Source: Patescibacteria group bacterium (GTDB lineage Bacteria; Patescibacteriota; Minisyncoccia; Phycocordibacterales; PALSA-1337). From it: 64,000 bases of DNA. A program made the translations under genes and the position numbers. The DNA is taken from assembly GCA_040387635.1 (NCBI GenBank), contig JAZKDJ010000001.1, positions 243,851 through 307,850 of the forward strand, given 5' to 3'. Below the pieces are notes generated by a model. The model saw only the letters and a list, made by a program, of their open reading frames with translations, had not been told where the DNA came from and did not search any database. Of the stretch, positions 1,221 through 36,904 are shown one piece after another (positions within the stretch are counted from its first letter, which is position 1; each line of letters starts with the position of its first letter).

Positions 1221-2948
1221 TTAGGCTTTTTCTTCAACGTCGGCGATCTTCTTTGCGATCTTTTTCTCACTTTCGCGAACGTACTTTTTAAGTGATGCAA
1301 TAATCTGATCCTCTTCCTTGGTAAGCTCGCGCTTAGTCTTCACTTTCTCAAGAGTTTTAACCTGTTTCTCAATATCATTACAAATTTCTTCGAACTGTTC
1401 ATGGATGAGTCGGTCAGCTGCCTGTATATCTCTTCGAATCTTCTTTCTATACTTACGCATATGTGTAACGAGATGAACCATGAGTGTCGACAAACCAACC
1501 ACAATGAGGAGGCAGACGATTACGATAGTCGCGTAATCTGCCAAATACGTACCAAATCTAGAAAGCGGGCGGCCATTCACAACAAATGAATATTCGTCAG
1601 TGAACAAGCTCTGACCCCCTCGTATGTCTGTTGCTTTAGCCTTGAATGCATAAGCACCTGACGAGAGATCCTTCGTTACAACAACAATAAACTCACCTAC
1701 AGCATTACTCTTTGCTGACTGTGTAATTACCCTTCCCTTCGAATCAGTAATCTCGAAAGCGACGGTTGCGTTAGGGTATGTCGTACCAGTTATCTTAAGC
1801 GGTTCAGATCCTTCTAGGGTTGTTGTGTAGTCTGTAATAACAGGAGACTCTATAGGCTGAATCTCAAATTCACCGAATGAAGCAGTTTCATTACCTGCTC
1901 GGTCTACGGCTTTCACTAATATAGTCTTCTTGCCAGGTGAGAGCGGCGAGAGAGTTACGGTTCCGTTATCAACATCGTCATAATCAATTACAACCGGTTC
2001 ATCGTTGTTAATTTTTACTATATAACGATCAATTCCAGACAATTCATCCTTAGCATTAATTCCAATTCTTGGTCTAGCATTTTCAGTCTGTTTTCCATCG
2101 AGGTACTGTAGCGTAAACGGAAGCGGCGGCACTGTATCTGTCTGGAACTTATAATGACTTATACCTCCCCATCCATAAGCATTCCTCAACTGAACGTGGA
2201 AATAGTAGGAGCCGTCTTTAACTTGATCAAGTTTCTTGGAGCTTACAGCTGGCTCATAGAGAACGCCCGGAGTTGAGTTGGAACGCGCATCAAACTGCAA
2301 ACGCGCAGCAGTAACATCAGAAGAAACATTCCACGCGAACTCGGGTGACAATGTGTTATACCAACGCGTCGAATCAGGATGCGATGCAGATGTAATCTTA
2401 GGAGCGACTGGAACAAGTGCTGATGTCGAAGCTGGAGTAGTAATCTCTTCTCCTGGAACAGCAGTAGTATCTGAAACAAGTATGGTCGAATACCCAAGTA
2501 CCTTAAGCACATTTGTTCCCTTGCCGTCATTTGCGAGCACCGAACCTTCTGACACTGACACGCGCGCTGAACCGGGCTTTTTTGCTCTGAATGTCAGCGT
2601 AGCGATATTTCCAAACGATCCTTTGTAGCCAGGATTAAATATCACTCCTTCAAGCTCTGCCTTTCCAGTTTGGTTAGAATAGGTTGGCTCACGAACCCAA
2701 AGATTGAGAATGGAAGAATTTTTTGAAATCGAAACAAGCTCTAATGTATCTGTAGTATACGAAATCGTAGCCGAGACAGCGTTAATATAATCCTCGGTGT
2801 AATCTACCCCCAAAGATACTTGGAACGTAGTATTTGCAACAGGAGTTGCTGCTGCAGGATTGAGAATAAGAGCAGCGGCATCGGCCCTTTGCGGAGCAAG
2901 CCATATAAGAATGAGAACAAAAAAGATCGAGAAAAGACGTACCTTCAT
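1221..2948 (-). CDS. Cohesin-like domain surface protein with Ig-like domains, C-terminal TM helix and cytoplasmic coiled-coil tail
   Basis: 575 aa with signal peptide MKVRLFSIFFVLILIWLAPQRADA. The N-terminal module LILNPAAATPVANTTFQVSLGVD..INAVSATISYTTDTLELVSISK..GNIATLTFRAKKPGSARVSV fits the cohesin pattern. A late TM helix (IVIVCLLIVVGLSTLMVHLV) is followed by a Lys/Glu-rich helical tail. Confidence 0.6.
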   Translation of the reverse strand: MKVRLFSIFFVLILIWLAPQRADAAALILNPAAATPVANTTFQVSLGVDYTEDYINAVSATISYTTDTLELVSISKNSSILNLWVREPTYSNQTGKAELEGVIFNPGYKGSFGNIATLTFRAKKPGSARVSVSEGSVLANDGKGTNVLKVLGYSTILVSDTTAVPGEEITTPASTSALVPVAPKITSASHPDSTRWYNTLSPEFAWNVSSDVTAARLQFDARSNSTPGVLYEPAVSSKKLDQVKDGSYYFHVQLRNAYGWGGISHYKFQTDTVPPLPFTLQYLDGKQTENARPRIGINAKDELSGIDRYIVKINNDEPVVIDYDDVDNGTVTLSPLSPGKKTILVKAVDRAGNETASFGEFEIQPIESPVITDYTTTLEGSEPLKITGTTYPNATVAFEITDSKGRVITQSAKSNAVGEFIVVVTKDLSSGAYAFKAKATDIRGGQSLFTDEYSFVVNGRPLSRFGTYLADYATIVIVCLLIVVGLSTLMVHLVTHMRKYRKKIRRDIQAADRLIHEQFEEICNDIEKQVKTLEKVKTKRELTKEEDQIIASLKKYVRESEKKIAKKIADVEEKA

Positions 2949-3008
2949 ACGACAAAGTATACCTCATCCACCACGATCGATAGATGGAATATGTGGATAG
3001 CCTAAGAT

Positions 3009-3902
3009 TTATGAAATATTTCGAAGCACCTTCTTCACTATGAAGCCACAAAGGATAAGTAGAGCGAGGAGAACTACGATAGCGACCACCTGATCTTTGC
3101 CAGTAATTGCAGACGGAGAAGTAACCTCAGTTATTTTTTCATTTCCAGAATAATCTATAGCTTTGATGTTAAATTTTTTAGATACAAAATAATTGTCAGT
3201 TGCGTAAGGACTCTCAGCAACAATCCATGAGCCGTCTTCAATTTTGACCTGATATTCCTTCACACCGCTCTCCTTGTCGCTCGCGAGAAATACCAGAGCT
3301 GGTGAATCAACAAAAACGCCGCCCTTGGGTTCAAATGCTGCAATCTGGAATTCAGGAGCAACACTATCATTAAGCTCGTACGGTTGATTAAGAGTATAAG
3401 ACGACACACTTACGAGGACAGGATAGATCTCAACAGACACCTCGCTTCCATGACCGTCAGAACGAAGTAGACGGACATTCTCAAGCTTGATCTCACCGAT
3501 ACCCTTCTCTGTTCCTCTAAAGATTAATTTGAAAACTGCACCTGGATACAATGAAGGATATGAAAGCGGATCCACCAAACCCTTGAAGCCTCCAGGAATA
3601 ATGCCCGAGAAAGCTATTCGTCCGTTGTTATCTTCTGCCTTCTGAACCCAGAGAGGCACAATGGAATTACCATCATGAACCGCAACGAGCTGTAGAGCAC
3701 CTTCGGGATAAACAACCTCTCCCTCGATTGCGTTGATTGTCTCACCTTTGGTATCCAAGAGTAAATCAATCGCGAATTCCTGCTGTTTGGAAATTTCTTT
3801 TCTAGAAATATCGAAACGAAGCTCGGCAGCGTTAAGTACAAAAGGCGTCATTATTAAGACTCCAAGTAATAGACTAAGAATTGTATATGTAAACTTTTTC
3901 AT
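3009..3902 (-). CDS. Cohesin-like domain protein, C-terminally membrane anchored
   Basis: 297 aa with a signal peptide. AELRFDISRKEISKQQEFAIDLLLDTKGETINAIEGEVVYPEGALQLVAVHDGNSIVPLWV..GAVFKLIFRGTEKGIGEIKLENV parallels the cohesin-like module of the 1221..2948 protein. C-terminal TM helix is VVAIVVLLALLILCGFIV. Confidence 0.6.
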   Translation of the reverse strand: MKKFTYTILSLLLGVLIMTPFVLNAAELRFDISRKEISKQQEFAIDLLLDTKGETINAIEGEVVYPEGALQLVAVHDGNSIVPLWVQKAEDNNGRIAFSGIIPGGFKGLVDPLSYPSLYPGAVFKLIFRGTEKGIGEIKLENVRLLRSDGHGSEVSVEIYPVLVSVSSYTLNQPYELNDSVAPEFQIAAFEPKGGVFVDSPALVFLASDKESGVKEYQVKIEDGSWIVAESPYATDNYFVSKKFNIKAIDYSGNEKITEVTSPSAITGKDQVVAIVVLLALLILCGFIVKKVLRNIS

Positions 3903-3904
3903 AA

Positions 3905-5005
3905 TTATCCGGTCCAGTTATAAGCGAGAATGCTAAAGTCCACAAGGTTTACCTTGCCATCAGTATTTAGGTCGACATTGACTGCGACATTCGCCTTGAG
4001 ATACCAGAATGCCATGATGCTGTAATCAATGAGGTTAATGCGGTTGTCACAGTTAAGATCACCTTGCCGAGCCTTTGGACATGAAACAGCCTTGATGTCA
4101 GACATGACGTTCTTGGCACCCACTTTGAAATCGTACACATCGCTATCTGCACTGATCTCACTATCGAAGACAGCTCTTGATACAGCTTCGTGATCACCAA
4201 ACTCCAAAATAGTAGAATCAATGTTTTGCAAATAGATACCACTGGCGTCAGTTTTTGTTTTAAACAAATGAGGAGTTTCGGAATTAACTGTAATCGTAAC
4301 CTCCTTGTTAGGTACACTCTGTCCAAAAATCTTGATCACGTCTCCTCTTTTTACTTCAAGTTTGTCCGCCACGATAGTTGGTGCCAAGAAAACGCCGCTC
4401 ACTTTCGCGATCACGCCATTTGTAAGCATGACAGGAAACGAGAATGGCTGTGACTTAATTCCATAAATATCTTCCGTCAAAAGACTGAAGGCGTACGTTC
4501 CTCTAGAAAGATTGCTCAATGAAATTTCAAAGTTAGCATCCGGTCCCGCGATTACAGACGCAACAGCAGTAGTATCTCTGAGGAGAGTTACTTTTGTTCC
4601 TGGATATGCTCTTCCAGAGAGTACAACGCCTGCTGACCCACTAGTTGACCCGCCTCCTCCGCCCCCACCCCCACCTCCTCCTCCACTTGATGGTGGAGGA
4701 GGAACAGGCGCAGTTCCTGAACAATCAGTAACGATATAGGCAGTACAATCCGTGTGGCATGTAAGCACTCCGATATCGTATCCGAGAGATCTGCATGAAG
4801 CACCTGCTAAGTCGGCTCCGTCGCACTGTTCTCCTGAATCAGCAATATCATCTCCACATATTCCCGCGACAGTGGCCGTGACCGTAACGGCTGCCGTAAC
4901 GTCTTTTAGATAAAAAATACCCGCAGCCATGCAAAGGCCTACGAGCATAATTATATATGGCGCAAGAGCGGTATGCTTTTTAAAAATAAGGGCAATACTA
5001 TTCAT
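3905..5005 (-). CDS. Dockerin-bearing secreted/anchored protein with Cys-rich repeat, Pro/Gly linker and Ig-like domains
   Basis: 366 aa with an N-terminal TM/signal. It has a Cys-rich CGDDIADSGEQCDGADLAGASCRSLGYDIGVLTCHTDCTAYIVTDC and a PPPPSSG(12) linker. The C-terminus GDLNCDNRINLIDYSIMAFWYL...VDLNTDGKVNLVDFSILAYNW matches duplicated dockerin type I Ca-binding repeats. Confidence 0.65.
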   Translation of the reverse strand: MNSIALIFKKHTALAPYIIMLVGLCMAAGIFYLKDVTAAVTVTATVAGICGDDIADSGEQCDGADLAGASCRSLGYDIGVLTCHTDCTAYIVTDCSGTAPVPPPPSSGGGGGGGGGGGGSTSGSAGVVLSGRAYPGTKVTLLRDTTAVASVIAGPDANFEISLSNLSRGTYAFSLLTEDIYGIKSQPFSFPVMLTNGVIAKVSGVFLAPTIVADKLEVKRGDVIKIFGQSVPNKEVTITVNSETPHLFKTKTDASGIYLQNIDSTILEFGDHEAVSRAVFDSEISADSDVYDFKVGAKNVMSDIKAVSCPKARQGDLNCDNRINLIDYSIMAFWYLKANVAVNVDLNTDGKVNLVDFSILAYNWTG

Positions 5006-5044
5006 TCGCGATATAAATGTTGAAACTCTTCCGACACCTCCTCT

Positions 5045-5974
5045 TTAGATATTTCCTCCCTTCCGAGCCTGAGCAATAACCCAGTTATTGTATTTCTTGA
5101 GGAAAATAGGACCTCCAACAACGACGATGAGAACAACGAGAATTAGTGTTACGAGCAATTTCCATGGAAGAACCCAGATCCAGAAGCTGATTGGTTGAGC
5201 GGCTGCAGATTCAGAAAATGATACATCACTTGAAATCTTATAAGGTCCAAACATGAAGCCATCATCCTCGAATGTAATTCCATCTATTGATCGTGAGCTT
5301 GAAGGTAGTATTTGGTAATTTTTTCCGTTGAGAGGAACATTGCTTCTTATGTTTCCAAAAAGAGATGTTAGTCTTACGTCTCCCTGAGGTTTGACGTAAA
5401 TGTTCATATTGTTATCCACCCTAAGAGAGACAAGAAGTGGTAAAGGATTGTTCCAGAATAGCTTCTTGCCTCCAGCAGTTGTAAATGCAGAAGCGGTAGC
5501 TGCACCTGTTACTTCTCCTGATACATTGAGGTATACAAGAATTCCGGCTCGAGTGATGATCGCAACCTGTGATCCCTCACCAGAAGGAGGTGTCGTGCTC
5601 CACCAGACTACAGCGAAATGACCTCCCGGAGGAGCGTCTTTAGGAACTGTGATGGTAAATGGAATTTTCTTATCTTCTCCTGACTTGAGAGTAACTGATG
5701 GAACTGTCTTCACCCAGAGTGCGATGGCGCTCTGTTCCTTGCTGAATAGCTTTGTAGCGTTCGGCTCGGTAAACTTTTCGTACGACGGATAAAATGTCTT
5801 AGTCCCTTCTTCTTCGTTCTTAACGTAGAATTCTCCGGTAATGACTGTGCCGGGATCAACGTTATATTCAAGTTTTACCGGACCTACAGTAACTGCTGAA
5901 GCGAAGTTAGGTAAGATTACAGCGCAAATTATGATGAGTGACGCTAGTATCTTACAGACATTTTTATAATTCAT
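5045..5974 (-). CDS. DUF916/DUF3324-like two-Ig-domain cell-surface protein with C-terminal TM anchor
   Basis: 309 aa with a signal peptide. VTVGPVKLEYNVDPGTVITGEFYVKNEEEG...PFTITVPKDAPPGGHFAVVWW..AGILVYLNV is followed by a second beta domain (YQILPSSSRS) and a TM helix plus basic tail (LVTLILVVLIVVVGGPIFLKKYNN). The architecture resembles the anchored protein of Firmicute WxL loci, judged from memory of the family pattern. Confidence 0.5.
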   Translation of the reverse strand: MNYKNVCKILASLIIICAVILPNFASAVTVGPVKLEYNVDPGTVITGEFYVKNEEEGTKTFYPSYEKFTEPNATKLFSKEQSAIALWVKTVPSVTLKSGEDKKIPFTITVPKDAPPGGHFAVVWWSTTPPSGEGSQVAIITRAGILVYLNVSGEVTGAATASAFTTAGGKKLFWNNPLPLLVSLRVDNNMNIYVKPQGDVRLTSLFGNIRSNVPLNGKNYQILPSSSRSIDGITFEDDGFMFGPYKISSDVSFSESAAAQPISFWIWVLPWKLLVTLILVVLIVVVGGPIFLKKYNNWVIAQARKGGNI

Positions 5975-5997: not shown

Positions 5998-6627
5998 TTA
6001 GTTACCTGTACAGCTATAGCTGATGGTATCGGTATAGGATCCAGCTCGAGTAAGGGCGCTGATTGCAGCTTTATGTGTAACTCCAACTTCCTTTGAGGCT
6101 ACAGGACCTGATGATGAAGCGAGGGCTGTGTTTGTGACCGTGAGTCCTCCAACCTGGTTGTTAAGTACTCGATATTTGCTGTTGAGAGTAAGAACTGCTC
6201 CTGTTCCAGCTGAACTCGTAGCTGCCTGGATACCGTAACCTTCTGTTCCTGCCGCGAGAGTTGCGTCAGCTGAAGCAATGAGCTGAGCTGTTGTTGTACC
6301 AGCTGCTTTATAGAGACCTGGGCTTACTGTATCTCCAGCACCCTGAACGTTGAGTGTACATCCTCCAGAGCTGTTACATGAGAGTGATGATGTAGCGCTT
6401 GGTGAAGCAGTGCTTATTGCTCCTGCTGTAAGTGTTCCGAATGTAATTGAGCTTTGTGTGTTAGAACATGTAACTGACTCGTTGATTGTAGCTGAGACAG
6501 TAACGGCAGCTGCTCCTTTAGCTGTATTTGGCTCCGTTGTGATTCCAAGAAGCATGACGAGGCATGCGGCTATGGTTAGTGATAGGACTGCCGATAATTT
6601 TCCTTCCAGAAACTTGTTGTGTTGCAT
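5998..6627 (-). CDS. Small secreted beta-rich subunit-like protein (Cys-containing, Ser/Thr/Ala/Gly-rich), paralogous to the C-terminus of the giant protein
   Basis: 209 aa with a signal/TM. It reads VTVSATINESVTCSNTQSSITFGTLTAG..SLSCNSSGGCTLNV..AGTEGYGIQAATSSAGTG..HKAAISALTRAGSYTDTISYSCTGN. It aligns along its length with the last 160 aa of the 6719..12019 product. The pattern recalls SCPU/WxL-type subunits but has no W-x-L motif. Confidence 0.6.
   Translation of the reverse strand: MQHNKFLEGKLSAVLSLTIAACLVMLLGITTEPNTAKGAAAVTVSATINESVTCSNTQSSITFGTLTAGAISTASPSATSSLSCNSSGGCTLNVQGAGDTVSPGLYKAAGTTTAQLIASADATLAAGTEGYGIQAATSSAGTGAVLTLNSKYRVLNNQVGGLTVTNTALASSSGPVASKEVGVTHKAAISALTRAGSYTDTISYSCTGN
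6209..6252. repeat. 44-nt exact repeat, copy A (within the small-subunit gene)
   Basis: gctgaactcgtagctgcctggataccgtaaccttctgttcctgc is identical to 6930..6973, while the flanking paralogous sequence is strongly diverged. It encodes AGTEGYGIQAATSSA on the minus strand. Confidence 0.9.
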
Positions 6628-6718: not shown

Positions 6719-9700
6719 CTAGTTCGACAAGCAACTATACGTAATAGTGTCGACGTAATTTCCTACCGGAGTCGTAGCAGCGATAGCAGCTTTGTGAGTT
6801 ATCACAACTTCCCTACTTGAAAATGATGATGTGCTACTTGCAATAACCGAGTTTGCAATAGCGAGTCCTCCTACGTCGTTACCTGTTTTCAAAAAGGTTG
6901 GACTAATAGCTAATGTACTACCAGTTCCTGCTGAACTCGTAGCTGCCTGGATACCGTAACCTTCTGTTCCTGCGGACAATGTCGCTGTTAGTGATGGAAT
7001 AAGGTATGCAGGAGATGTAGTAGCGAGACCTGGGCTTACACCATCACCTGCACTTGAAGCTGAGAGTGAGCATCCAGAGCCTGAACCACAACTAAATGTT
7101 GTCGTAGCATTGGGCGATGCTGTCTCCACCTGAGCGAGAGACAAGGCGCTGAATGTTGTCGACGTAATATTACTTGAGCATGTAACGGTTCCTCCGAAGT
7201 TCCAGTTGGAGTTACCTGTACCATCAAGGTTGGAAGTATCCGAAGCTTCGATCTGATCTCCTCCACTCGCATCTGAATCTTTTGGATTCGTATTAAATAC
7301 CGACTGGACTGCACTAACAAATAATTTCCAAGGAGAGCTGGATACTGAAGACCTGAGCTGTACTCGAGTGCCTGCAGCCTGTCCATTCAGCCACATATTA
7401 GTAAATGTATAGCCCTCACCTGCTGCAAATCTTAGTTTGGTAGACGGAGTTGTTGCTGTGAAATATGTCGAGGAAGCAGCTGAAGCAAAAATTACGGAAG
7501 GTGTCGTATCAGGATCACTCCCCGAGTTGTTGGTAATTTGCAATCCACTGAATGAAGAAGTGGCAACCATGTTTCCACTCAAAGTCTGCTGAGACGTTCC
7601 GTTAAATGTCGTCGTTCCTCCATTATGAGAAAAGATTCCGTTGTTAGTATAATTCCCTGAAACAGTTAGCGACGAAGGCGCGATCACCTTTGAGTTTGAA
7701 TCAATAACAATGTTGGTTGTTGATGCGTTGTTGTTGAACTGTTTCATCCTCGTTGAATTAGAGGTATACAAATCAGTAACTTCATCACTTGTTAAAGCTC
7801 TATTATAGATACGTACATCATCAAGTGATCCTAGGAACGCCGAACCTCCCCAAACAGCAGCTCCTATCTTTGCTGTTGTTGCAGAGTACACCATTGATGC
7901 AGCACTTCCCGAATAACTTCCTGCTCCAGTTTCCAATACTCCGTCCACGTAGACAACCATATCCGAAAAACCATTAACAACTCCAACAACATGCGTCCAA
8001 GCTCCAGAAGTGATCATTGAGGTTGAAACTTTACTTCTTCTATTTGCTGCACCAAGTCCACCGTTATTACCATATTCAAGAATAACGCTCCTATCAGCTC
8101 CAATTCTCAACTCAGCACCCGCATAGACTGCAGGTGTTCCATCTGTAGACACCACGCTGCGCGTAACTGTAAAATCACTCTGGTTAATCCAAACTGAGAA
8201 TGTAATTGGGAACGGTATTTCCAAGCTAGCGTTGTTTCCTAAATCGACATAATCATCTGTCCCATCGAACTGCAACCCTCCATCAAACTGACCGGTAGTC
8301 CATGTTGGACCGTTTGTCAGTGTTCCAGCATTCCCTGTTCCACTGGAATCAGCCGCATCCGTTCCTACCCCTTCATCAAATTTCCAATGACCGACGAATG
8401 TAGCAGGGTTGACAGGTGTCGTCGATCCAATAAAGCTCACTGTGGAGAAAGCCGAACTACCAGTTAGAGTTCCTGAAATAGTTTGTGTACTGGAGGCATT
8501 CGCAAAATAAATAGTACCCGAATTATTATTGAAAGTTCCATTATTCAAATATGATCCCAAAACAGTAAGAAGTGGTGGTGCAGTGACCGTACCGTTCGTT
8601 ATAACAAAGCCGGTAGTTGAAGCATTGTTTGAAAATGTCCAAGCTCCGCCAACGCCATTGAATGTCGTTGTACCCAGTGCGGCATTACCTGTAAGAGCTC
8701 CGGCAATAGTTTTACCAGTAGTAGTCGCATTAAATATTATTTCCCCGCTCGTTGTTGCAACGAATGTCGAGCCTGCGTCCGCAAGCCAAGATCCAGCAAG
8801 CGTAATTGCACCTCCTGCAATGATGGATGCACCATCATCGATATGTATACTACCGTCGGTAGTTGACGATGCGTTTCCGTGAATGGTCACCGGACCTCCT
8901 GGAGCAAACACTTTTCCAGCGTAGACAAAAAGCTCTTGGTCCTTAAACACATTCAGCACTCCGCTATTCGCGGTAAATGGAATATCGCTATCGTTATCTG
9001 CATCGTACTTAGCAAAATCAGTTATGGTAGTAGACGTACCCGAAGTTCCTTCGTGTTTTACGGTCACTCTGTTTCGATAAAGATCGATGTTCGGAAGGTT
9101 CGCAGTTGTAGAAGCTTTCGTCACAGTAACAGCTCTCGTTGTACTGTCTCCGTCCACCCACACAGTCACAGCTTTTCCTAACTTAGCAACTTCACCATCC
9201 ATGAGAATGGTCCAAAATCCACTTCCTGACAAAGTTGTTGTGGAGTACGTATCGAACCCGTCCACTCTAGCCTTAATTACTTTTCCTCCAGTTGTAATCT
9301 GAGTCGAACCTTCGTCTGAATAGAGAGTTCCTGAAAGAGAATAAACTCCAGTCTCGGACCATACAATCTTCATTTGAACGCGATGATCCACATCTCCTGT
9401 CGATTCCTGATACAAAGCAATTCCTTCGCCCGGGTTCAGGGCAAGCTCGTAACCGGTTCCAAACACGTTTTCGTTTCCTCCAATCGCCTGTCCAGCCACA
9501 GCTGGAGTGATTTCGCTAAACAATCGACTCGTGGTTGCGCTACTCATAGTGACAGTCACACCCGTCCTGCGTAATTCTACGGATGAGCTTGCAGTATCAG
9601 TATGCTTCTTTGGGATGTCCGCTGTAGAAATAAGCGTTCCACCTGAAGCAGCTGTGATCCTACGCAAACTCATAGGAACATATGCGGCCGCTGCCGCAGC

Positions 9701-12019
9701 ATCAGTTCGCATCAATATCCTCTTGACCACTACCTGCTTTCCAGAATCCAAAGGGTTAAACAATGACGCATATACATGACCGAAACCTGCTGATCCAGCC
9801 AACGTTCCAAGCGTTGCCATGAAATCTTTTTGAGATGTTGGAGTGGATACTTGCTCCTTCCAATCAAACAGAACTTTCACTCTAAAGTCCGTATCTCCTG
9901 CTCCGTCCTGATATAAAGTAATTCCCTGACCTTCCTGGAGAACAAGCCTCTCACCCACAAATTCATGATCTACGTGACCAGACAACTGAGGAGCGGCAGT
10001 AGTCGGAGCCGCTCCCGGACTTGTAATCGATATTAGTGATGAACTTGTTGTACCCGTAAGTGTAACCGTAGGACCAGCAATACGAACCTGCGCAACACTT
10101 ACTGCCGACGATGTACTCTTTCGCATTAGATCGCTTGCTGTAATTGCAGTACCCGCCGAAGCAGCACTGATTCGAAGTACCCTAATTGGTACGTATGTCG
10201 CAGCTGCTACAGCATCAACTTTTATACCAATCTTGTTCAACAAAATTGTCTTTCCGGATCCTGATGGATTAAAAAAACTAACGTACTGATATGGGTTAGT
10301 CGCTGAACCAGCAACAGAACCAGTACTCCAAAGATATTCTCCTTGTGCTGTAGGCGCTCCAACCTGCTCCTTCCATTCTATGAGCAACTTCACTCGCATG
10401 TCGATGTCGCCTGCTGCAGACTGGAACAAAGCAATTCCTTCACCAGGAGCCAACACTAGATATTCGTCTCCACTAGTCAAAGGCAGATCATACTGAGCAA
10501 TCTGCTGTCCGACTGCACCTGGAGTCGTAAGTGTGAGTAGTGTTGCATTACCACTTCCTGATTTGACGACGGTTGGGTTTCCATAACGGATTTCTGCAAT
10601 AGTCGTAGCAGACGTGGAAGCCTTCTTGGGTACATTGGCGGCAGTAATTTGAGTTCCTCCAGTAGCGGAGCCTATTCTCTGGATCGAGAGCGGAACATAG
10701 ACAGCCGTTGTAGTCGCCTCAACCCTAGGAATGATTCTTTTGACGAGAATGTGTTTACCTGAAGCAGCTGGATTAAAAAAGGAAACGTAGTTATATCCGT
10801 TCGTAATGTTTCCTGCCACTGGTCCCACATTTAAAATATATTCTCCTTGTGCGGTTGGTGTAGCAGTCTGTTCAGCCCATTCCACAGACAGTCTCACCAC
10901 CTGATCGATGTCACCAGTAGCACTTGAAACAAGAGCAAGTCCTTCGCCTGGACTCAATACTATATATTCGCTTGTAGTTGCAAAAAGAAGTTCAAAGTGG
11001 CTGACAGGTTCTGACGCAGCTGCAGGAGGTGTTACTTCCATTATCTTTGATTCCGTCACTGTACCCGCAAGTGTAGCTGTCACACCTGTGTGACGAATAT
11101 CCATAATAGAAGTTGCTGAGTCGTTATGCTTCTCCGGAATGTTTGCGGCTAGGATCTGCGTACCTGCTGATGCGGCAGTAATTCGGCGGATATAAATGCT
11201 GTTGGTATAAATAGCAGCCGTGTCAGCATCGACATCGATACTAAGCCGCTTCACAAGCACAGATTTTCCAGAGCTAGCAGGATTGAAAAACGTAGCGTAC
11301 TTATAGTCAGTAACTGCCGCCACTTCTACCCTTGGAAATGACAGTATATATTCATTGAGTGCTGTAGGAGTACTCGTTGTTTCTTCCCAACCAAGGTTGA
11401 GAGTAATTCTTTGGTCTGCATCTCCAACAGCTTCCTGGTATAGAGCAATACCCTCTCCTGCCTTGAGGACGATAGGCTCGGTAGAATCAAAAAGCATTTC
11501 TTCTTCAGAGGTATTTGAACCTGCCACTCCCGGCGCTGTAATTGCATTCATTCGGGAATCTGCAGTTCCAGCAAATGCGACAGTAACGTTGGTGTGACGA
11601 ATAGTTGCCATCGGAGAAGCCGAAAGATTATTTTTCTTAACAATTTCTGGAATATCTATACCAGTACCCACTGTTGCCGATGTAATTCTTCGGATCGTAA
11701 GGTTCTGATATGTGGCAGCGGCCACAGCGTTCGCCAGAATCTTCATTCTATTAATAGAGATTGTACGAGTACTGGTAGCAGGATTGAAAATCGTAGCGTA
11801 CACATAGTTAGCAGCAGTGCTTCCCGTGACAGGACCAATGGATATCATGTATTGGTTTGCTGCAGGATTGGTTGCGGCCTCAACAGTTCGAGCAAGAGGC
11901 AGCTGGAAAATTTCCGCAGCTCCTAGACTGAATAGAACATAGAAGCAAAGCACCACGCATGTCATGAGCTTTTTACCGAATGTTTTTGCAATGCGATGTA
12001 TGTGTCGTATCGTCCTCAT
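6719..12019 (-). CDS. Giant (1766 aa) surface protein: signal/TM, 5 tandem ~170-aa modules, beta-helix-like Gly/Thr/Asn-rich segments flanking a LamG (Laminin_G_3-like) domain, C-terminal subunit-like domain
   Basis: Uninterrupted 5.3 kb ORF. LamG motifs are HWKFDEGVGTDAADSSGTGNAGTL..GGLQFDGTDDYVDL..WTHVVGVV..VYVDG..LDDVRIYNRALTSDEV (nt ~7760-8398). The C-terminal 160 aa (nt 6722-7201) are homologous to the 5998..6627 protein. Confidence 0.85.
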   Translation of the reverse strand: MRTIRHIHRIAKTFGKKLMTCVVLCFYVLFSLGAAEIFQLPLARTVEAATNPAANQYMISIGPVTGSTAANYVYATIFNPATSTRTISINRMKILANAVAAATYQNLTIRRITSATVGTGIDIPEIVKKNNLSASPMATIRHTNVTVAFAGTADSRMNAITAPGVAGSNTSEEEMLFDSTEPIVLKAGEGIALYQEAVGDADQRITLNLGWEETTSTPTALNEYILSFPRVEVAAVTDYKYATFFNPASSGKSVLVKRLSIDVDADTAAIYTNSIYIRRITAASAGTQILAANIPEKHNDSATSIMDIRHTGVTATLAGTVTESKIMEVTPPAAASEPVSHFELLFATTSEYIVLSPGEGLALVSSATGDIDQVVRLSVEWAEQTATPTAQGEYILNVGPVAGNITNGYNYVSFFNPAASGKHILVKRIIPRVEATTTAVYVPLSIQRIGSATGGTQITAANVPKKASTSATTIAEIRYGNPTVVKSGSGNATLLTLTTPGAVGQQIAQYDLPLTSGDEYLVLAPGEGIALFQSAAGDIDMRVKLLIEWKEQVGAPTAQGEYLWSTGSVAGSATNPYQYVSFFNPSGSGKTILLNKIGIKVDAVAAATYVPIRVLRISAASAGTAITASDLMRKSTSSAVSVAQVRIAGPTVTLTGTTSSSLISITSPGAAPTTAAPQLSGHVDHEFVGERLVLQEGQGITLYQDGAGDTDFRVKVLFDWKEQVSTPTSQKDFMATLGTLAGSAGFGHVYASLFNPLDSGKQVVVKRILMRTDAAAAAAYVPMSLRRITAASGGTLISTADIPKKHTDTASSSVELRRTGVTVTMSSATTSRLFSEITPAVAGQAIGGNENVFGTGYELALNPGEGIALYQESTGDVDHRVQMKIVWSETGVYSLSGTLYSDEGSTQITTGGKVIKARVDGFDTYSTTTLSGSGFWTILMDGEVAKLGKAVTVWVDGDSTTRAVTVTKASTTANLPNIDLYRNRVTVKHEGTSGTSTTITDFAKYDADNDSDIPFTANSGVLNVFKDQELFVYAGKVFAPGGPVTIHGNASSTTDGSIHIDDGASIIAGGAITLAGSWLADAGSTFVATTSGEIIFNATTTGKTIAGALTGNAALGTTTFNGVGGAWTFSNNASTTGFVITNGTVTAPPLLTVLGSYLNNGTFNNNSGTIYFANASSTQTISGTLTGSSAFSTVSFIGSTTPVNPATFVGHWKFDEGVGTDAADSSGTGNAGTLTNGPTWTTGQFDGGLQFDGTDDYVDLGNNASLEIPFPITFSVWINQSDFTVTRSVVSTDGTPAVYAGAELRIGADRSVILEYGNNGGLGAANRRSKVSTSMITSGAWTHVVGVVNGFSDMVVYVDGVLETGAGSYSGSAASMVYSATTAKIGAAVWGGSAFLGSLDDVRIYNRALTSDEVTDLYTSNSTRMKQFNNNASTTNIVIDSNSKVIAPSSLTVSGNYTNNGIFSHNGGTTTFNGTSQQTLSGNMVATSSFSGLQITNNSGSDPDTTPSVIFASAASSTYFTATTPSTKLRFAAGEGYTFTNMWLNGQAAGTRVQLRSSVSSSPWKLFVSAVQSVFNTNPKDSDASGGDQIEASDTSNLDGTGNSNWNFGGTVTCSSNITSTTFSALSLAQVETASPNATTTFSCGSGSGCSLSASSAGDGVSPGLATTSPAYLIPSLTATLSAGTEGYGIQAATSSAGTGSTLAISPTFLKTGNDVGGLAIANSVIASSTSSFSSREVVITHKAAIAATTPVGNYVDTITYSCLSN
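6930..6973. repeat. 44-nt exact repeat, copy B (within the C-terminal domain of the giant gene)
   Basis: Identical to 6209..6252. A second short identical block, gagacctgggcttac, occurs at 6313..6327 and 7025..7039. Confidence 0.9.
9347..11857 (-). repeat. Five tandem, diverged ~170-aa (~510 nt) protein modules inside the giant ORF
   Basis: Approximate repeat boundaries are aa 55-220, 221-390, 391-559, 560-730 and 731-891. The shared pattern is Y.Y(AV)(ST)(FL)FNP..SGK..(LV)VKR(IL)....DA..AA.Y(VT)......RI..A(ST).GT.I.A..(IV)P(KE)K......S.......G.TV...G...........PG......GE.(LI)(VA)L.PGEG(IL)AL(YF)Q...GD.D.RV.....W.E(QT)...PTAQ. Confidence 0.85.
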
Positions 12020-12022: not shown

Positions 12023-13990
12023 CTATTCGCTCAAATTAAGAAGGGATTTCTCCGCCTCGTCGAGGTTGGTATCAAAGTCTGTAGACTTCCTGTAATTATT
12101 AACGGCATTGATGTCATTCTCAGAAAACACCTCACCTCTACCCTTTGCATCTATGAAATAAAATTCATGGCTGCCAATAATTATTTTCCAAGGCAAATTG
12201 GCAAAGGTTACTTCGCCACGCTGACCCAACGCTGGATCGAAAGCAGGAATTTTCTTTTGATACCATACCTCCTTATCAAGATCGTAAGCGTTCACGATAG
12301 TTTTGCCGTTGCTAAGCCAAATTATATGTTTCGCGTAGAGTCCAAGAGGAAAATTATCAGGCGGACTCAGTACATCAACATTCGCAGTTACGTCTCCTGA
12401 AGGACCTACAAGCCAGAGCATGAACTGTTCTGGAAGATCGATAGGCGATGGCTCACCTTCTGTAGTAAGCGAAGTTACGCCGTACTGAGTCTCATCAGTC
12501 GTTGTTGCCTCTGTTTCTGATTCTACTTCTGCATCTGCTTCAGGCACGGTAACAACAATTTGCTCTGTAGTAGTACTTTCGTCTACAGGAGTTGGTATCG
12601 ATGACGTAAGCATAACAACAGTTCCATTAGAGTAGCCCTTAATATCCCAAACTCGCTCCTGGCCAAGCTGAAGCGGCTTTGTAGGCACTATGAATGCTTC
12701 TCTTTCTACAATCTCAGTGACTTTGAGACTTTCAAATTCAATTTCAACTGACATCGCATCCAAATAGATAGACTGTGCAGCATCGCTGAACGGCATGCTC
12801 TCAATAGCGATCTGGAGCTTGCTTATATCTGAGATACTTTCGAGAACGCCCTCTGGAATCTCAAAGCTTTCTCGATAAAAGTTAAGGCTGGTTATTTTCT
12901 CTAACTCCGTCCAGGTTACTCCATCGAGAGTATATTTGATGACGAACAAAGCTGGTGATTCTACTGGAACTGGCGTAGCCTCTTCTGTTTCTGTAGATGT
13001 CGCAGATTCTGTAACAGACTCAGGAACAATTGCCTCTGCCGCAGTTGCCTCAAGAGGAACTTCAGTTTCCTCAGCCTCCTGTGCTGATGTTGTAGAGACC
13101 TCTATGTTTTCCTGAGCAAACACTTCCCTACCTAGGGTGAAATGCTCGAAGAATGAATTCAAAAATGAAGACTCGCCAGAACTTTCTTCCTGGCTTGAAC
13201 TTTCTGGTTCTGACTGCTCTTCTTCTTCCTCTTCCTCCTCCTGTTCCTCTTGCTGAGGCTCTTCTTCTTGTTCTTTTTCCTCTACCTTAGGTTCTTCTTT
13301 TTCTTCAACACTCTCCTCTTTCGCTTCTTCAGACTCTGTCGGTTTCTCTTCAACCTTTTCTTCTTCGGGTTTTACTACTGGCTCTTCTTTCGTTTCTTCT
13401 TTCTCTTCTACAGGTGGTGCAACTATTTCTTCTGGCTTTTCTTCAGAATTAATAATCGAAGGAAGAGCTGAGGCTCCGTTAGTATTATTTGGCGTACTCG
13501 AAGCTGCTTCTGACGGAGTCGTTGACGCTGCGCTCTCCGCTTCCTTCTCAGCCTTGTCTTCGTCATACACTTCGTTAGTTACTGTTTCAGGAATGATTGG
13601 CTGATCGTCCTTGAGAGTTTTTGAAATCCAAGAAAATTTCAAAGAAATCTTAGTCGATGTTGCATACTCTGGAATCTCACCTTCAAATTTTCCACAAAAA
13701 ATAGTAGACAGGCGATCCTTCAGGACTGCTGAGTTGGTATCTGTATATGCGTCGAAGCTGCCATCGATGACATCAGGCCTTCCTTCTGCGTTCTGAACGT
13801 TTTCCCAGCCTCCTAAACATGTCGAAGGATAGAATACACTGAGTCCTGCACGGGCAGATGATGGCGGAAAGACGTTATATACAAGCAGGAATAGAACGAT
13901 GGCTCCGCATACGAGCAGGAGGGCTAGCTTCTTACGACTTTTTAAGCTCATCTTGAGAGAATTCACTTGTGTATTATATCGCATCAACAT
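12023..13990 (-). CDS. Hypothetical N-terminally anchored protein with an extremely acidic Glu-rich low-complexity region
   Basis: 655 aa with TM helix LALLLVCGAIVLFLLVY. The Glu/Lys/Pro-rich stretch includes EEQEEEEEEEEQSEPESS. The stop codon lies 3 nt before the giant gene's ATG at 12019, so translational coupling is likely. Confidence 0.6.
   Translation of the reverse strand: MLMRYNTQVNSLKMSLKSRKKLALLLVCGAIVLFLLVYNVFPPSSARAGLSVFYPSTCLGGWENVQNAEGRPDVIDGSFDAYTDTNSAVLKDRLSTIFCGKFEGEIPEYATSTKISLKFSWISKTLKDDQPIIPETVTNEVYDEDKAEKEAESAASTTPSEAASSTPNNTNGASALPSIINSEEKPEEIVAPPVEEKEETKEEPVVKPEEEKVEEKPTESEEAKEESVEEKEEPKVEEKEQEEEPQQEEQEEEEEEEEQSEPESSSQEESSGESSFLNSFFEHFTLGREVFAQENIEVSTTSAQEAEETEVPLEATAAEAIVPESVTESATSTETEEATPVPVESPALFVIKYTLDGVTWTELEKITSLNFYRESFEIPEGVLESISDISKLQIAIESMPFSDAAQSIYLDAMSVEIEFESLKVTEIVEREAFIVPTKPLQLGQERVWDIKGYSNGTVVMLTSSIPTPVDESTTTEQIVVTVPEADAEVESETEATTTDETQYGVTSLTTEGEPSPIDLPEQFMLWLVGPSGDVTANVDVLSPPDNFPLGLYAKHIIWLSNGKTIVNAYDLDKEVWYQKKIPAFDPALGQRGEVTFANLPWKIIIGSHEFYFIDAKGRGEVFSENDINAVNNYRKSTDFDTNLDEAEKSLLNLSE
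13170..13450 (-). repeat. Low-complexity GAA/GAG-rich (poly-Glu coding) tract
   Basis: The plus strand is dominated by ttcttc/ctcttc runs. It encodes EEKPEE..VEEKEETKEEP..EEQEEEEEEEEQ. Confidence 0.7.
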
Positions 13991-14058: not shown

Positions 14059-14826
14059 TTAGTTCTTTTTATCCATATTCTGGATCTGGTTCTTCGCAAA
14101 TCCCTCAAAGGCTCGAAGAATTTCAAGCGGGATAGCAAACACAACTGTGTTTGATTGATCCGAAGAGATATCATTCATCGCCTGGAGAGTTCGAAGATGA
14201 AGCGCTCCTGGAACCATAGCGAGATTCTTCGCAGCATCCGCCATGTTCTGAGAAGCCGCAAGCTCTCCTTCTGAAGTGATGATAACAGCTCGCTTCTCTC
14301 GCTCTGCCTCAGCCTGCTTAGCGATAGTTCGTTCCATATCAGGTGGAAGACTCACATCCTTGAGCTCTACGTTAGCCACATGAAGACCCCACTGGTCAGT
14401 CTCCTTCTCAACAATCTCACGGATTCTGTCCGCAATCTTGTCTCTGTTTGCAAGAAGCTCATCAAGCGTGACTTCACCTACGATATTTCGCATTGTAGTC
14501 TGCGCATACTGAGAAACTGCGTATCGAAAGTTCTCTACTTCGATAATAGCCTTCTCAGCTGATGCAACCTTGTAATAAATAACCGCGTTCACTCGCACTG
14601 ACACGTTATCTCGTGTAATAGCATTCTGATCAGGAACGTCTACAGCCTTTGTTCGCATGTCTACCTTCTGGTAGCTCTGAAACACAGGAATCACAAGTCT
14701 CCATCCCGGCTCCATGATTCTAGTAAAACGTCCCATCGTAAACTTAACCCCTCGCTCGTATTGGTTAATTTGCTTGAGCGAAACGACAAGTAAAACGAAA
14801 ATTATTACTCCAATGATTATTTCCAT
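14059..14826 (-). CDS. SPFH/band-7 (stomatin-like) membrane protein
   Basis: 255 aa with an N-terminal TM helix. It then reads QYERGVKFTMGRF..PGWRLVIPVFQSYQKVDMRTKAVDVPDQNAITRDNVSVRVNAVIYYKV...AQTTMRNIVGEVTLDELL..R..I...EAEREKRAVIITSEGE, the classic stomatin/PHB pattern. Confidence 0.9.
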   Translation of the reverse strand: MEIIIGVIIFVLLVVSLKQINQYERGVKFTMGRFTRIMEPGWRLVIPVFQSYQKVDMRTKAVDVPDQNAITRDNVSVRVNAVIYYKVASAEKAIIEVENFRYAVSQYAQTTMRNIVGEVTLDELLANRDKIADRIREIVEKETDQWGLHVANVELKDVSLPPDMERTIAKQAEAEREKRAVIITSEGELAASQNMADAAKNLAMVPGALHLRTLQAMNDISSDQSNTVVFAIPLEILRAFEGFAKNQIQNMDKKN

Positions 14827-14883
14827 ACTTCAATTAAACCACCTATGCATCCTAGTGACAAGCAAAGATAACGAGTATATTTG

Positions 14884-14956
14884 AGCCGTTGATGAGGATT
14901 GAACTCATGACCTCCCCATTACCAATGGAGTGCTCTACCAACTGAGCTACAACGGC
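14884..14956 (-). tRNA. tRNA-Thr (anticodon GGT)
   Basis: The reverse complement GCCGTTGTAGCTCAGTTGGTAGAGCACTCCATTGGTAATGGGGAGGTCATGAGTTCAATCCTCATCAACGGCT forms a cloverleaf with anticodon loop TTGGTAA. Confidence 0.9.
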
Positions 14957-28709: not shown

Positions 28710-29234
28710 CTATTGATATGTAAACTGAAGTGCTCTTTCTACTCGCTTGAGGTTAATCTGATCGCAGAACTCCTGCTTGTTGGGCTCAGTACCTGATCCA
28801 AGTCTTCCTCCCACGTTATATCCCAAAGACGTCACTGATGTCTGTACGTACCCTCCAACTGCCTCCTTAGTAACCTTAACCAGTGCACACCGTCTCTCAA
28901 CTCCTGTTAAGCTCCTTGAGACTATAGGAAATTCAGTCACCCACTTCTCATCACTTCCACCTTCCCGACTTGCTGTGATCGCATGATTAGTTCCGTCACA
29001 TGTAACTGTAAGTGGTGGATAAGCGCCTGATGATGTCGAGAAAGCATTCTGTCCTTCCCAGTAGAGTGCACATTCCAATCCGTTGTCTGCCATATAGATG
29101 GCGGCTTGCGATTCCTTTGCTCCAGATGATAGCAAGACCTCTTTGCGAGCAATTGAAAGAATAGAAACTCCAACCGAGAGAATGATCGAGGTTATGAGGA
29201 TCGCAAACAAAAGTGTGTAGCCGCGGTTATACAT
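28710..29234 (-). CDS. PilX-like minor pilin/pilus assembly protein
   Basis: 174 aa. The N-terminus MYNRGYTLLFAILITSIILSVGVSILSIA is a pilin-like hydrophobic helix without Glu5. It is the last gene of the minor-pilin run. Confidence 0.55.
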   Translation of the reverse strand: MYNRGYTLLFAILITSIILSVGVSILSIARKEVLLSSGAKESQAAIYMADNGLECALYWEGQNAFSTSSGAYPPLTVTCDGTNHAITASREGGSDEKWVTEFPIVSRSLTGVERRCALVKVTKEAVGGYVQTSVTSLGYNVGGRLGSGTEPNKQEFCDQINLKRVERALQFTYQ

Positions 29235-29239
29235 ATTGA

Positions 29240-29788
29240 TTATCTATACACATTATAAAGATTGCTCTTGATCGACGTGGTGTTGGTTATCTTGCCGCTC
29301 TTCCATACAACAGTCACCTGAACTCGAGCTTCGTCCTGAATGCCAGTTGCCGTCTCTTTCATCACCACAGTGTAAAAACGCTTATAGAGTGTAGGGTTAC
29401 CAGTATTAACATGGGTGAAGCGTTGCTCACTATCGAAATACAACTGTCCGCATGTTGTCGAGCTTGAGCATTCAGTCTGAGCTCCAGTAATAGTATCTAC
29501 AGTACAGCGCTTGTTCGTAGTTTCACTGCATTCGACTCCATTTTCATTAAAATCCGCTGTCCAATACAATGCACCCTCATCAATATCTCCTTCGATAAGA
29601 GATCCGTCGCGGATATTCTTTATATACTCCATGGCATCTTGCGCAAGATAGTTTGCAGTAATCTGCTCACGAGCCGTGACTGCAGCAATGAGTCCCCTAT
29701 TGGCAATGGTCAAAGGACCCACGATTGCGATCATGAGTATCGCTACGGCGATAAGTGTTTCTATAATTGTGAAGCCTTTTGTAGTCAT
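29240..29788 (-). CDS. Type IV minor pilin (prepilin-type N-terminal cleavage/methylation domain)
   Basis: MTTKG|FTIIETLIAVAILMIAIVGPL. Confidence 0.8.
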   Translation of the reverse strand: MTTKGFTIIETLIAVAILMIAIVGPLTIANRGLIAAVTAREQITANYLAQDAMEYIKNIRDGSLIEGDIDEGALYWTADFNENGVECSETTNKRCTVDTITGAQTECSSSTTCGQLYFDSEQRFTHVNTGNPTLYKRFYTVVMKETATGIQDEARVQVTVVWKSGKITNTTSIKSNLYNVYR

Positions 29789-29799
29789 GATGTTATGAA

Positions 29800-30354
29800 C
29801 TATTCCATTGCTCTCTGCGAAACTGTGGTCTGCAAGTTAAAGTAACTCTTATCACGTTCTCTCATGCCGGCATACCCACTAAGCGTAATCCTAACCATAG
29901 GCTGTGCCGTAAGCGATCCTTCATTGATAATGTTGAATTCCATCTTAGTCACATTGAGTTCCCTTGAAACAATGGATGCGTAATCACTGAGATCCGCAGA
30001 GCCTGAACAGCCTTCAGATTTCTCAATAGTGTTCTCTGTTGTATTAAGCCTGTATCGAATTGAAAATGGTTCAGTATCCTGATCGCAGCCACGATCAATG
30101 TCGTTAAGCGGCTGAAATTCTATAGTCTCAATATTGCCACTCACGTTAGTATATTCAAAAGATGTTCTAAGTTCGCGTGACATAGTCTCTAAAGCGAAGT
30201 TCAAGTTGTTAACCGCAGTCTTAAGCGCTTGTGCCTTCTTGTTAGCATCAACCACTTTAAGGAAAGCTCCCACTGCCACCAAAGCCACCACAGCGAAGAT
30301 ACCGAGAGAGACGATGATTTCAACGAGCGTAAATCCTTGGTTAAATTTCTTCAT
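29800..30354 (-). CDS. Type IV minor pilin (prepilin-type N-terminal domain)
   Basis: From ATG 30354: MKKFNQG|FTLVEIIVSLGIFAVVALVAV. It starts 1 nt after the upstream gene's stop. Confidence 0.8.
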   Translation of the reverse strand: MKKFNQGFTLVEIIVSLGIFAVVALVAVGAFLKVVDANKKAQALKTAVNNLNFALETMSRELRTSFEYTNVSGNIETIEFQPLNDIDRGCDQDTEPFSIRYRLNTTENTIEKSEGCSGSADLSDYASIVSRELNVTKMEFNIINEGSLTAQPMVRITLSGYAGMRERDKSYFNLQTTVSQRAME

Positions 30355-30355
30355 A

Positions 30356-30964
30356 CTATTGTTCAATTGAGATCTGTCCGTTGTCTCGAACAATTATCTT
30401 TCGTGTCGATCCGTCAGTCGCAGCAACTACGATCTTGGCATATCTTTTTCGCGGTCCTCCTGGAGTGGTGGTTATGATGGCTGTCGGATCTGGACGCTTG
30501 AAGGCAACACTCAAAGCACTCACAGGACTACTGTCGCATGTTGAGTCGGAGTTACTAGCACAAAGAGACTTGATAGACATGTTCTTCTTGAGCTTGTATT
30601 TGTTGAGAACCTCATCCGCAGGACTAGATTGGTAGAAAAAATCTCCTGAAGCATCGACGAACAATTTGAATTCGTCATTTGCGCCTGTATTGAAATATGT
30701 TCCGTAGGCACTGTCGAAGTTACCTCCAATTCCCTGTCGCACATACAATCCATAAGCCTGCGCCTGGCGGATAGTAATAGCAATATCGTAAGCAACGTTA
30801 GTGACAAGAATTGAGCCATTGAACGTGCCGTATTTAGAAACAAGAAACGCTGTCATGAAAACGAAAATGGAAATAGAGATCATGAGTTCCACGAGCGTAA
30901 AGCCCCGTTTACCAGAAGCTCGCTTCTTTTGTTGTATGAATGGTGCAAATAACATGGTGTACAT
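30356..30964 (-). CDS. Type IV minor pilin (prepilin-type N-terminal domain)
   Basis: ...KKRASGKRG|FTLVELMISISIFVFMTAFLV. The start codon is uncertain (M1 or M4). Confidence 0.75.
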   Translation of the reverse strand: MYTMLFAPFIQQKKRASGKRGFTLVELMISISIFVFMTAFLVSKYGTFNGSILVTNVAYDIAITIRQAQAYGLYVRQGIGGNFDSAYGTYFNTGANDEFKLFVDASGDFFYQSSPADEVLNKYKLKKNMSIKSLCASNSDSTCDSSPVSALSVAFKRPDPTAIITTTPGGPRKRYAKIVVAATDGSTRKIIVRDNGQISIEQ

Positions 30965-30972
30965 CCTCTATT

Positions 30973-31776: not shown

Positions 31777-31781
31777 AAAGA

Positions 31782-32315: not shown

Positions 32316-32325
32316 AATATTTAAA

Positions 32326-36047: not shown

Positions 36048-36049
36048 GG

Positions 36050-36862: not shown

Positions 36863-36904
36863 AAATGTAAGTATACGTATAGAATGAAATAGAACAATAT
36901 ACCC

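Follow-up and report, generated by a model that had tools for sequence, protein, structure and literature searches.

The DNA analysed here is a window of 64,000 nucleotides from a Patescibacteria group bacterium (GenBank assembly GCA_040387635.1, contig JAZKDJ010000001.1, positions 243,851–307,850), and the element under study is a trio of genes located at nt 1221–5005 on the minus strand. The genes of the trio were designated A, B and C, and those lying upstream D, E and F. The three open reading frames (ORFs) are all present and arranged back-to-back: A (nt 1221–2948) codes for a long membrane-anchored cohesin protein of 575 aa, B (nt 3009–3902) for a short one of 297 aa, and C (nt 3905–5005) for a secreted protein of 366 aa carrying a dockerin and acting as a putative adaptor. 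Among public proteins from metagenome-assembled genomes (MAGs) of Patescibacteria group bacteria, one is 100% identical to A and one is identical to B over its length. A first-pass annotation of this region had described two consecutive genes for membrane-anchored cohesins and one for a dockerin protein, and the ORFs, the predicted fold of B, the Dockerin_1 (PF00404) match in C and the transmembrane helices all bear this out. The same annotation treated the trio as self-contained; instead, it makes up the 3' half of a longer conserved operon with six genes or more, an adhesin, a pilin and a chaperone-like protein being encoded upstream. We propose, with moderate confidence, that the trio is the anchoring module of a pilus of this bacterium resembling the Pam pili described below.

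A and B each have a signal peptide and, as judged from hydropathy, a hydrophobic helix near the C-terminus. In A, the cohesin module (residues 25–160, nt 2469–2876) is followed by three beta-sandwich stalk domains (residues ~180–460, nt 1569–2411; Big_13, 39.4 bits), a transmembrane helix (residues ~470–492, nt 1473–1541; hydropathy peak 2.81) and a cytoplasmic tail of 83 aa (nt 1224–1472). The AlphaFold2 (AF2) model of A, with a mean predicted local distance difference test score (pLDDT) of 86.8, shows a nine-strand N-terminal domain, a disordered linker at residues 162–176, three more beta domains, the transmembrane helix and the helical tail. The Lys/Glu-rich coiled-coil tail previously noticed on one of the cohesin proteins is indeed found here, the tail counting 16 Lys, 12 Glu and 7 Arg and being modelled within a continuous helix (residues 461–574); a weak ATP-synt_B-like match was also obtained for it. 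The stalk gave a sub-threshold OmpL47-type match, and the A-family profile matched immunoglobulin (Ig) domains of Bap and SiiE in the PDB. In B, the cohesin module (residues 26–170, nt 3393–3827) precedes a single Ig/fibronectin type III (FnIII)-like module (residues 184–261, nt 3120–3353), also with a sub-threshold OmpL47-type match, and a C-terminal transmembrane helix (nt 3033–3101; hydropathy 3.08; residues 268–296 in the model).

Homologues were collected by scanning species-representative genomes for the C family, which returned at least 557 confirmed stretches and 80 loci, essentially all from Patescibacteria MAGs; hidden Markov models (HMMs) were built for each gene family and mapped onto all 80 C-anchored loci. 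As single sequences, the cohesin modules stay under the Pfam threshold: PF00963 (gathering cut-off 24.1 bits) gave 16.4 bits on A and no match on B. Of the Pfam assignments proposed in the first-pass annotation, the dockerin thus passed its cut-off and the cohesin did not, though members of the cohesin families do match. Among 51 A-family members, 31 are matched by PF00963 at E ≤ 0.01, the best of them at 6.2e-11; weak matches at E ≤ 0.1 occur in 12 of 50 B-family members, and the N-terminal domains of A and B are homologous to each other (BLASTP E = 3e-11). When the AF2 model of B (pLDDT 92.7, predicted template modelling score 0.79) was compared with the PDB by Foldseek, cohesin modules made up 46 of the top 50 matches. 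The best was 2w1n, a cohesin–FnIII pair of C. perfringens (E = 1e-10), which spans both domains of B and aligns its FnIII part with the Ig/FnIII-like module. Single cohesins were aligned as well, namely 2xdh (template modelling score, TM-score, 0.78; root-mean-square deviation 2.7), 2vo8 (TM-score 0.77) and 5nrk. Other searches were less informative: PDB sequence searches with single A and B sequences returned nothing useful, the A-family profile retrieved from the PDB Ig domains only and no cohesins, with the B-family profile cohesins were reached at no better than E = 0.07, and with the full-length A model tandem Ig/FnIII arrays dominated the Foldseek matches, the cohesin–FnIII pair 2w1n appearing at rank 25. 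As the single sequences score under the Pfam threshold, the cohesin call rests on family HMM matches, on the homology between A and B and on the predicted fold of B; at the fold and family level, the cohesin–cohesin–dockerin description is confirmed. In established cohesin–dockerin structures, strands 8, 3, 6 and 5 form the dockerin-binding sheet. The conserved residues of A and B, among them an L-x-(N/S)-D-G-x-G motif common to both, fall in predicted strands 3, 5, 6 and 8 and in the loops of these strands.

Protein C is composed of a signal peptide (residues 1–38, nt 4892–5005; hydrophobic core at residues 13–31, AxA-type cleavage sites in homologues), a short strand at the mature N-terminus (AVTVTATVAG, nt 4862–4891), a Cys-rich module (residues 50–95, nt 4721–4858), a flexible Pro/Ser/Gly linker (nt 4634–4720), two Ig-like domains (nt 4106–4633) and the dockerin (nt 3908–4075). 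This agrees with the domain order first read from the sequence, in which a Cys-rich part, a P4-S2-G12 linker and Ig-like domains precede a C-terminal dockerin: the six Cys (positions 50, 61, 71, 83, 87 and 95) are invariant in the family, the linker reads exactly PPPPSSG12, with the Gly run kept across the family, and Big_6 scores 26.7 bits on C and matches 36 of 37 family members. The Cys-rich module is dispensable, being absent from two C variants (loci L066 and L069). PF00404 reaches 23.1 bits on C, marginally over its gathering cut-off of 22.9 bits, and matches all 37 aligned family members (best 9.7e-9), and the CelS dockerin structures 1daq and 2mte match C at E = 0.0013 in a PDB search. 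The two dockerin repeats are DLNCDNRINLIDYSIM and DLNTDGKVNLVDFSIL; they begin with DLNCDNRINLID and DLNTDGKVNLVD, respectively, each being a unit of ~22 residues with an EF-hand-like Ca loop (D-x-N-x-D-x3-N-x2-D) and a helix, in tandem, and the protein ends in an invariant WTG. Ca-ligand positions D316, N318, D320, D327, N347, D349 and D356 are invariant in the 37 sequences, and both helices are near-invariant. The C family is large, with more than 1366 protein clusters in addition to the confirmed stretches mentioned above. As already noticed in the first-pass annotation, no glycoside hydrolase modules are attached: library scans found no glycoside hydrolase (GH) or carbohydrate-binding module (CBM) family in A, B or C, and no GH, carbohydrate esterase, polysaccharide lyase or CBM family in the operon proteins.

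Across the 80 related Patescibacteria loci the operon keeps one order, in which the genes for the tip adhesin, the pilin and the anchored chaperone-like protein are followed by those for the dockerin protein, the short cohesin and the long cohesin. In 76 of the 77 loci with enough room B comes after C, at a median gap of 4 nt; A comes next in 66 of 67 loci of the C-anchored set, and D is the immediate upstream neighbour of C in 64 of 71. The lone locus with no separate B (L058) carries an 866-aa B–A fusion. The same D-C-B-A order is present in Ca. Microsyncoccus archaeolyticus, a co-cultured parasite of methanogens. The C-B-A arrangement is far beyond chance, this order of the trio being repeated in essentially all related loci examined. 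Over 1.27 Mb of related DNA the family dockerin HMM matches C alone and the cohesin HMM matches A and B alone. That the adjacency of the genes marks a cognate pair, as first suggested, is thus strongly backed by near-universal synteny, by the short C–B gap, by the B–A fusions and by the exclusivity of the HMM matches.

B–A fusions encoding single polypeptides of 866–886 aa occur in L058 (nt 6871–9471), P0177, P0188, P0190, P0193 and P0195, with the full B profile, including its transmembrane region, followed by the full A profile; such a layout would be topologically consistent if the signal peptide of A serves as a second transmembrane segment. The rare long C–B gaps are due to insertion of small ORFs for GIY-YIG nucleases (Pfam E = 1e-15 to 1e-16), found between C and B in L014 (nt 11170–11469), L023 (nt 10970–11320) and L032 (nt 11088–11360); another lies upstream of C in L083. 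These ORFs look like mobile insertions of the homing-endonuclease type.

Upstream of the trio, still on the minus strand, D (nt 5045–5974, 309 aa) codes for a putative pilin chaperone, WxLIP-like and membrane-anchored, with signal peptide and C-terminal transmembrane helix. E (nt 5998–6627, 209 aa) codes for a small pilin with a signal peptide, an N-terminal strand (AAVTVSATINES, nt 6475–6510) and a pilin domain that NCBIfam matches below its cut-off and that an iterated HMM joins to other pilins, and F (nt 6719–12019, 1766 aa) for a tip adhesin with repeats, a laminin G (LamG) domain (Laminin_G_3, E = 1.4e-22) and a C-terminal pilin domain (nt 6722–7186, 204 bits). NCBIfam covers the Pam pilus system with NF058581 and NF058579; its CPR_Pam_pilin_C model has a curated cut-off of 55 bits, which two pilins at the same operon position in locus L005 exceed (70.5 and 73.4 bits), and one iterated HMM joins the pilin domains of E and F with these L005 pilins. 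A search of F for the donor-strand motif found none.

A strand of the form V-x-V-S-A-T-V stands just ahead of the pilin domain in the D-adjacent pilins across loci. It is an internal linker in pilins of ~350 aa and an N-terminal extension in those of ~210 and ~175 aa; the motif V.VSATV precedes the pilin domain in major pilins only, and large adhesins and Cys-rich tip-type proteins, whose C-terminus is likewise a pilin domain, lack it. A donor strand would be expected to show just such a distribution. C has the same motif at its mature N-terminus, directly after the AxA-type cleavage sites of the homologues. In the window, the strand of E is AAVTVSATINES (AVTVSATINE) and that of C is AAVTVTATVAGI (AVTVTATVAG); the C N-terminus is the best non-self match to the E strand in the whole 64 kb, and its segment has the top score (22.6) on a donor-strand position-specific scoring matrix (PSSM). 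The best-window score against the pilin strand was 19.6 for C, compared with 11.6–13.4 for A, B and D. Pilin and C strands also alter in parallel in three operon subtypes: DQVxVSATVxxS in the pilin is accompanied by ITVEITATVPGC in C, SAVTVSASV by SVNVSASV and TATVTATVTVQ by ATISATVKIT. Strand similarity within loci was 15.7 versus 13.1 ± 0.6 in shuffled pairs, a value reached in 0 of 20,000 shuffles. The C variants of L066 and L069 are minimal, consisting of signal peptide, strand, Gly run, two Ig domains and dockerin; with no head and a Gly run next to it, the strand of these variants is a free peptide on a tether and cannot belong to a folded head. C variants in which domains homologous to pilin heads replace the N-terminus sit in loci where D was not detected (Fisher p = 2e-5 to 6e-5).

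A third putative class of pilins, of ~150–175 aa, was observed directly upstream of a short (~200-aa) D variant in L014 (nt 8682–9203), L036 (nt 8832–9350), L049 (nt 3425–3952), L051 (nt 8787–9230) and L065 (nt 4644–5171). These carry the strand TATVTATVTVQ and were missed by the pilin HMMs and caught by the donor-strand PSSM.

Taking these data together, a mechanism may be proposed that builds on the observed domain identities, on the conservation of the operon and on the similarity and co-variation of the strand motifs. All six proteins would be exported by Sec. F would occupy the distal tip, offering a pilin domain with its groove and having no donor strand, and copies of E would polymerise beneath it, the N-terminal strand of each (V-x-V-x-A-x-I) entering the incomplete pilin domain of the subunit before it, with the assistance of the membrane-anchored, WxLIP/PamC-like D. 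C would then cap the cell-proximal end of the fibre, since it has the strand and no pilin domain and can thus donate and not accept; we consider strand donation by C an evenly balanced proposition. Through its Gly-rich tether and Ig–Ig stalk, C would present the Ca-binding dockerin, which would plug into the cohesin of A, of B or of both; C-terminal transmembrane helices would keep these two proteins in the cytoplasmic membrane, A having a long four-domain stalk and a cytoplasmic coiled coil and B being short. The near-invariant, two-fold symmetric dockerin might bind the cohesins of A and B simultaneously. That cohesin and dockerin of the trio do bind is probable in our judgement, and direct contact is favoured because the genes are inseparable, B and A are at times fused, the HMM matches are exclusive, the dockerin helices are near-invariant and conserved residues of A and B fall in the predicted strands of the sheet and in their loops. 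With regard to host binding, a role first suggested for C as a displayed ligand, the probable host-binding part is the tip adhesin F, and C is more likely an adaptor linking the pilus to its anchors.

Several observations weigh against pilus anchoring and strand donation. The shuffling used for the within-locus strand comparison leaves shared ancestry in. Short strands rich in Val, Thr and Ala are common, and the null distribution of the 8-mer PSSM overlaps the C family, whose median of 7.6 lies at about the 95th percentile of other ORFs; many of the top matches among these other ORFs proved to be unrecognised pilins. The chaperone nature of D is backed by weak similarity only: WxLIP_PGBD matches, themselves weak, occur in 16 of 38 family members, the PDB gives nothing better than 9i1y at E = 0.28, and the Fn3-like similarity is likewise weak. 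Pilin E itself scores 26.4 bits on CPR_Pam_pilin_C, under the curated cut-off, and the model offers no explanation for the presence of two cohesin proteins. Lastly, in five loci C bears pilin-head-like domains in place of the strand, and D was not detected there. A head-bearing C of this kind evidently displays a domain directly, and pilus anchoring therefore cannot be the only use of the module.

A rival reading follows the stand-alone display of the first-pass annotation: the Cys-rich head of C would itself be the displayed adhesin or ligand, held on A and B by the dockerin; C would then be merely co-transcribed with the pilus genes, and the strand would be the first strand of the head domain. 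The identities of the cohesins and dockerin and the tight coupling of their genes fit this, and some C heads are homologous to N-domains of tip-type pilins in loci with no detectable D, which shows that the C-B-A core can display a domain directly. Against it, the C proteins of L066 and L069 are headless and pass from strand to Gly run, the strand mirrors the donor motif of the pilin subtype by subtype, and D and pilins are adjacent in 64 of 71 loci; we regard display by the trio on its own as unlikely. Less likely still is that the modules do not bind each other at all; A and B would then serve as a wall-spanning scaffold or usher-like platform, and the two EF-hands of C would have a structural or wall-binding function that depends on Ca. 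Cohesins and dockerins outside cellulosomes in many cases lack an assigned partner, and the cohesin sequences of the window are under the Pfam threshold, which leaves room for such a view. It is difficult to reconcile with three module-bearing genes that travel together almost without exception, with B and A sometimes in one polypeptide, with two near-invariant dockerin helices and with conserved residues of A and B, including L-x-(N/S)-D-G-x-G, lying in the predicted strands that make up the canonical binding sheet.

A miniature cellulosome-like scaffold of enzymes for polysaccharide degradation was also considered. The presence of cohesin and dockerin modules, and nothing else, speaks for it. 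Proteins A–G gave no match to glycoside hydrolase, CBM or other enzyme families, a single dockerin occurs in the window and in each related locus, and the neighbours are pilins and an adhesin. Given a domain content with no enzymes, one dockerin and two single-cohesin proteins, the cellulosome reading was rejected as practically untenable.

The proposed anchoring of the pilus by the trio has a parallel in the anchoring scaffoldins of cellulosomes, such as OlpA and OlpC of C. thermocellum (PDB 3ul4, 4dh2), in which a cell-bound cohesin captures a dockerin and thereby tethers a large extracellular assembly; the B model aligns with cohesins of this type with TM-scores of 0.72–0.74. Unlike the scaffoldins, A and B carry a transmembrane helix at the C-terminus and not SLH repeats or a sortase signal, there is one cohesin per anchor, the putative cargo is a pilus or adhesin instead of enzymes, and the host is a bacterium of the candidate phyla radiation (CPR) with no carbohydrate-active enzymes in the locus. 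The best structural matches to B, in GH84C of C. perfringens (2w1n) and in Archaeoglobus fulgidus (2xdh), are likewise cohesins used outside cellulose degradation. The C. perfringens modules, however, sit on secreted glycosidases or toxins, and none of these non-cellulosomal cohesins is known to have a membrane anchor or to belong to a pilus operon.

Pam pili have been described as CPR-specific fibres that form through donor-strand exchange, with PamA/B as pilins, PamC/D as anchored chaperones, PamT as tip and PamR as terminator and anchor (bioRxiv 10.64898/2026.03.03.709456). They were reported from Saccharimonadia and Microgenomatia, PamC/D being PapD/FimC-like and PamR RbmA-like, and PamR was proposed to insert an N-terminal strand into the last pilin and to anchor the pilus by its transmembrane helix (bioRxiv 10.64898/2026.03.03.709456). 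No cohesin or dockerin is mentioned in that preprint (bioRxiv 10.64898/2026.03.03.709456). The operon described here resembles the Pam systems in the family of the pilin C-terminal domain, in the donor strand as linker or extension, in a putative chaperone with C-terminal transmembrane helix and in strandless tip proteins. It differs in that PamR is itself membrane-anchored, while here termination (C) and anchoring (A and B) are split and presumably joined by the cohesin–dockerin pair, so that C, A and B together would take the functional place of the single-chain terminator of Saccharimonadia; the pilin of the window is moreover short (209 aa), single-domain and under the curated cut-off. RbmA was absent from the top 50 PDB matches of B, and the Pam-named NCBIfam models match none of A, B, C and D.

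In chaperone–usher pili, PapH is the last subunit, which donates its strand, is not extendable and fixes the length and base of the pilus. The role proposed for C as a strand-donating, non-extendable terminal subunit is alike, but PapH is a complete pilin fold standing at an outer-membrane usher, whereas C has no pilin domain and anchoring would be via its dockerin. Scans of proteins from the operon and its immediate neighbourhood revealed no usher-like family. A further resemblance, extending to D, is to the WxL clusters of Firmicutes, made of a small WxL protein, a large WxL protein and WxLIP, a DUF916–DUF3324–transmembrane protein whose partner is predicted to receive an inserted strand (PMC10599100). 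In both systems a small protein consisting of the shared domain only, a large protein that has this domain at its end, with host-binding domains in the WxL case, and a protein of two Ig domains and a C-terminal transmembrane helix are encoded together, but the similarity of D to WxLIP is sub-threshold. We know of no cohesin or dockerin genes in WxL clusters. Pam-type pili and WxL systems may be distantly related in evolution.

Non-cellulosomal cohesin–dockerin pairs and Pam pili are each already known, and some homologues of the trio are annotated in public databases as "cohesin domain-containing protein" or "dockerin type I repeat-containing protein". In the searchable literature we did not find the D-C-B-A cassette, its place in a Pam-type operon of Parcubacteria-type lineages or the strand-plus-dockerin architecture of C, nor are cohesin or dockerin modules mentioned in the paper on Microsyncoccus and its supplements. 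Much of bacterial diversity belongs to the CPR/Patescibacteria, whose way of life is attachment to host cells, and the attachment of Parcubacteria-type members is poorly known beyond type IV pili. The cassette is very widespread (>1366 clusters, ≥557 stretches) and very uniform, and we tentatively extend the reading to much of the Patescibacteria (Paceibacteria/Parcubacteria-type), which may fasten donor-strand-exchange pili for host attachment by a cohesin–dockerin joint, with a dockerin-bearing terminator plugged into two membrane cohesins. If so, many "orphan" cohesins and dockerins from outside cellulosomes would gain partners and a function, cohesin–dockerin pairs would have a new biological use, and the Pam pilus would be extended to further CPR classes, where it would be anchored differently and in a way that is new for a cell with neither outer membrane nor sortase. 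It would also provide a small Ca-dependent protein pair from uncultured organisms that can be expressed recombinantly, with Ca. Microsyncoccus archaeolyticus as a cultivable carrier.

Some further features of the region were recorded. Residues ~46–890 of F contain five tandem repeats of ~170 aa, with 36–45% mutual identity and no Pfam match, followed by the LamG domain; they may constitute a new repeat family for host binding. Next to F, nt 12023–13990 encode a secreted or anchored protein of 655 aa with an extremely acidic, low-complexity centre of Glu, Lys and Pro and no family match; as this ORF ends 3 nt before the start of F, it is probably co-transcribed with the pilus operon. Two tRNA-Thr genes at nt 1126–1199 and 14883–14956 (anticodons CGT and GGT) flank the region going from A to an SPFH/Band-7 gene (nt 14059–14826), and the operon's 3' end is marked by the former, which lies 22 nt past the stop codon of A. 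A type IV pilus cluster lies on the same strand at nt 28710–46614 (with genes at nt 44872–46614, 42161–43369 and 31782–32399, among others), and encodes an ATPase resembling PilB (T2SSE, E = 2.6e-115), a platform protein resembling PilC (T2SSF) and one or more prepilins that bear an N_methyl motif; together with the pilus operon, two different pilus systems are therefore encoded within 45 kb of this genome. Finally, ARAGORN predicted a tRNA-Ile with anticodon TAT at nt 62348–62422, a tRNA uncommon in bacteria, where AUA is usually decoded by a modified CAT tRNA.

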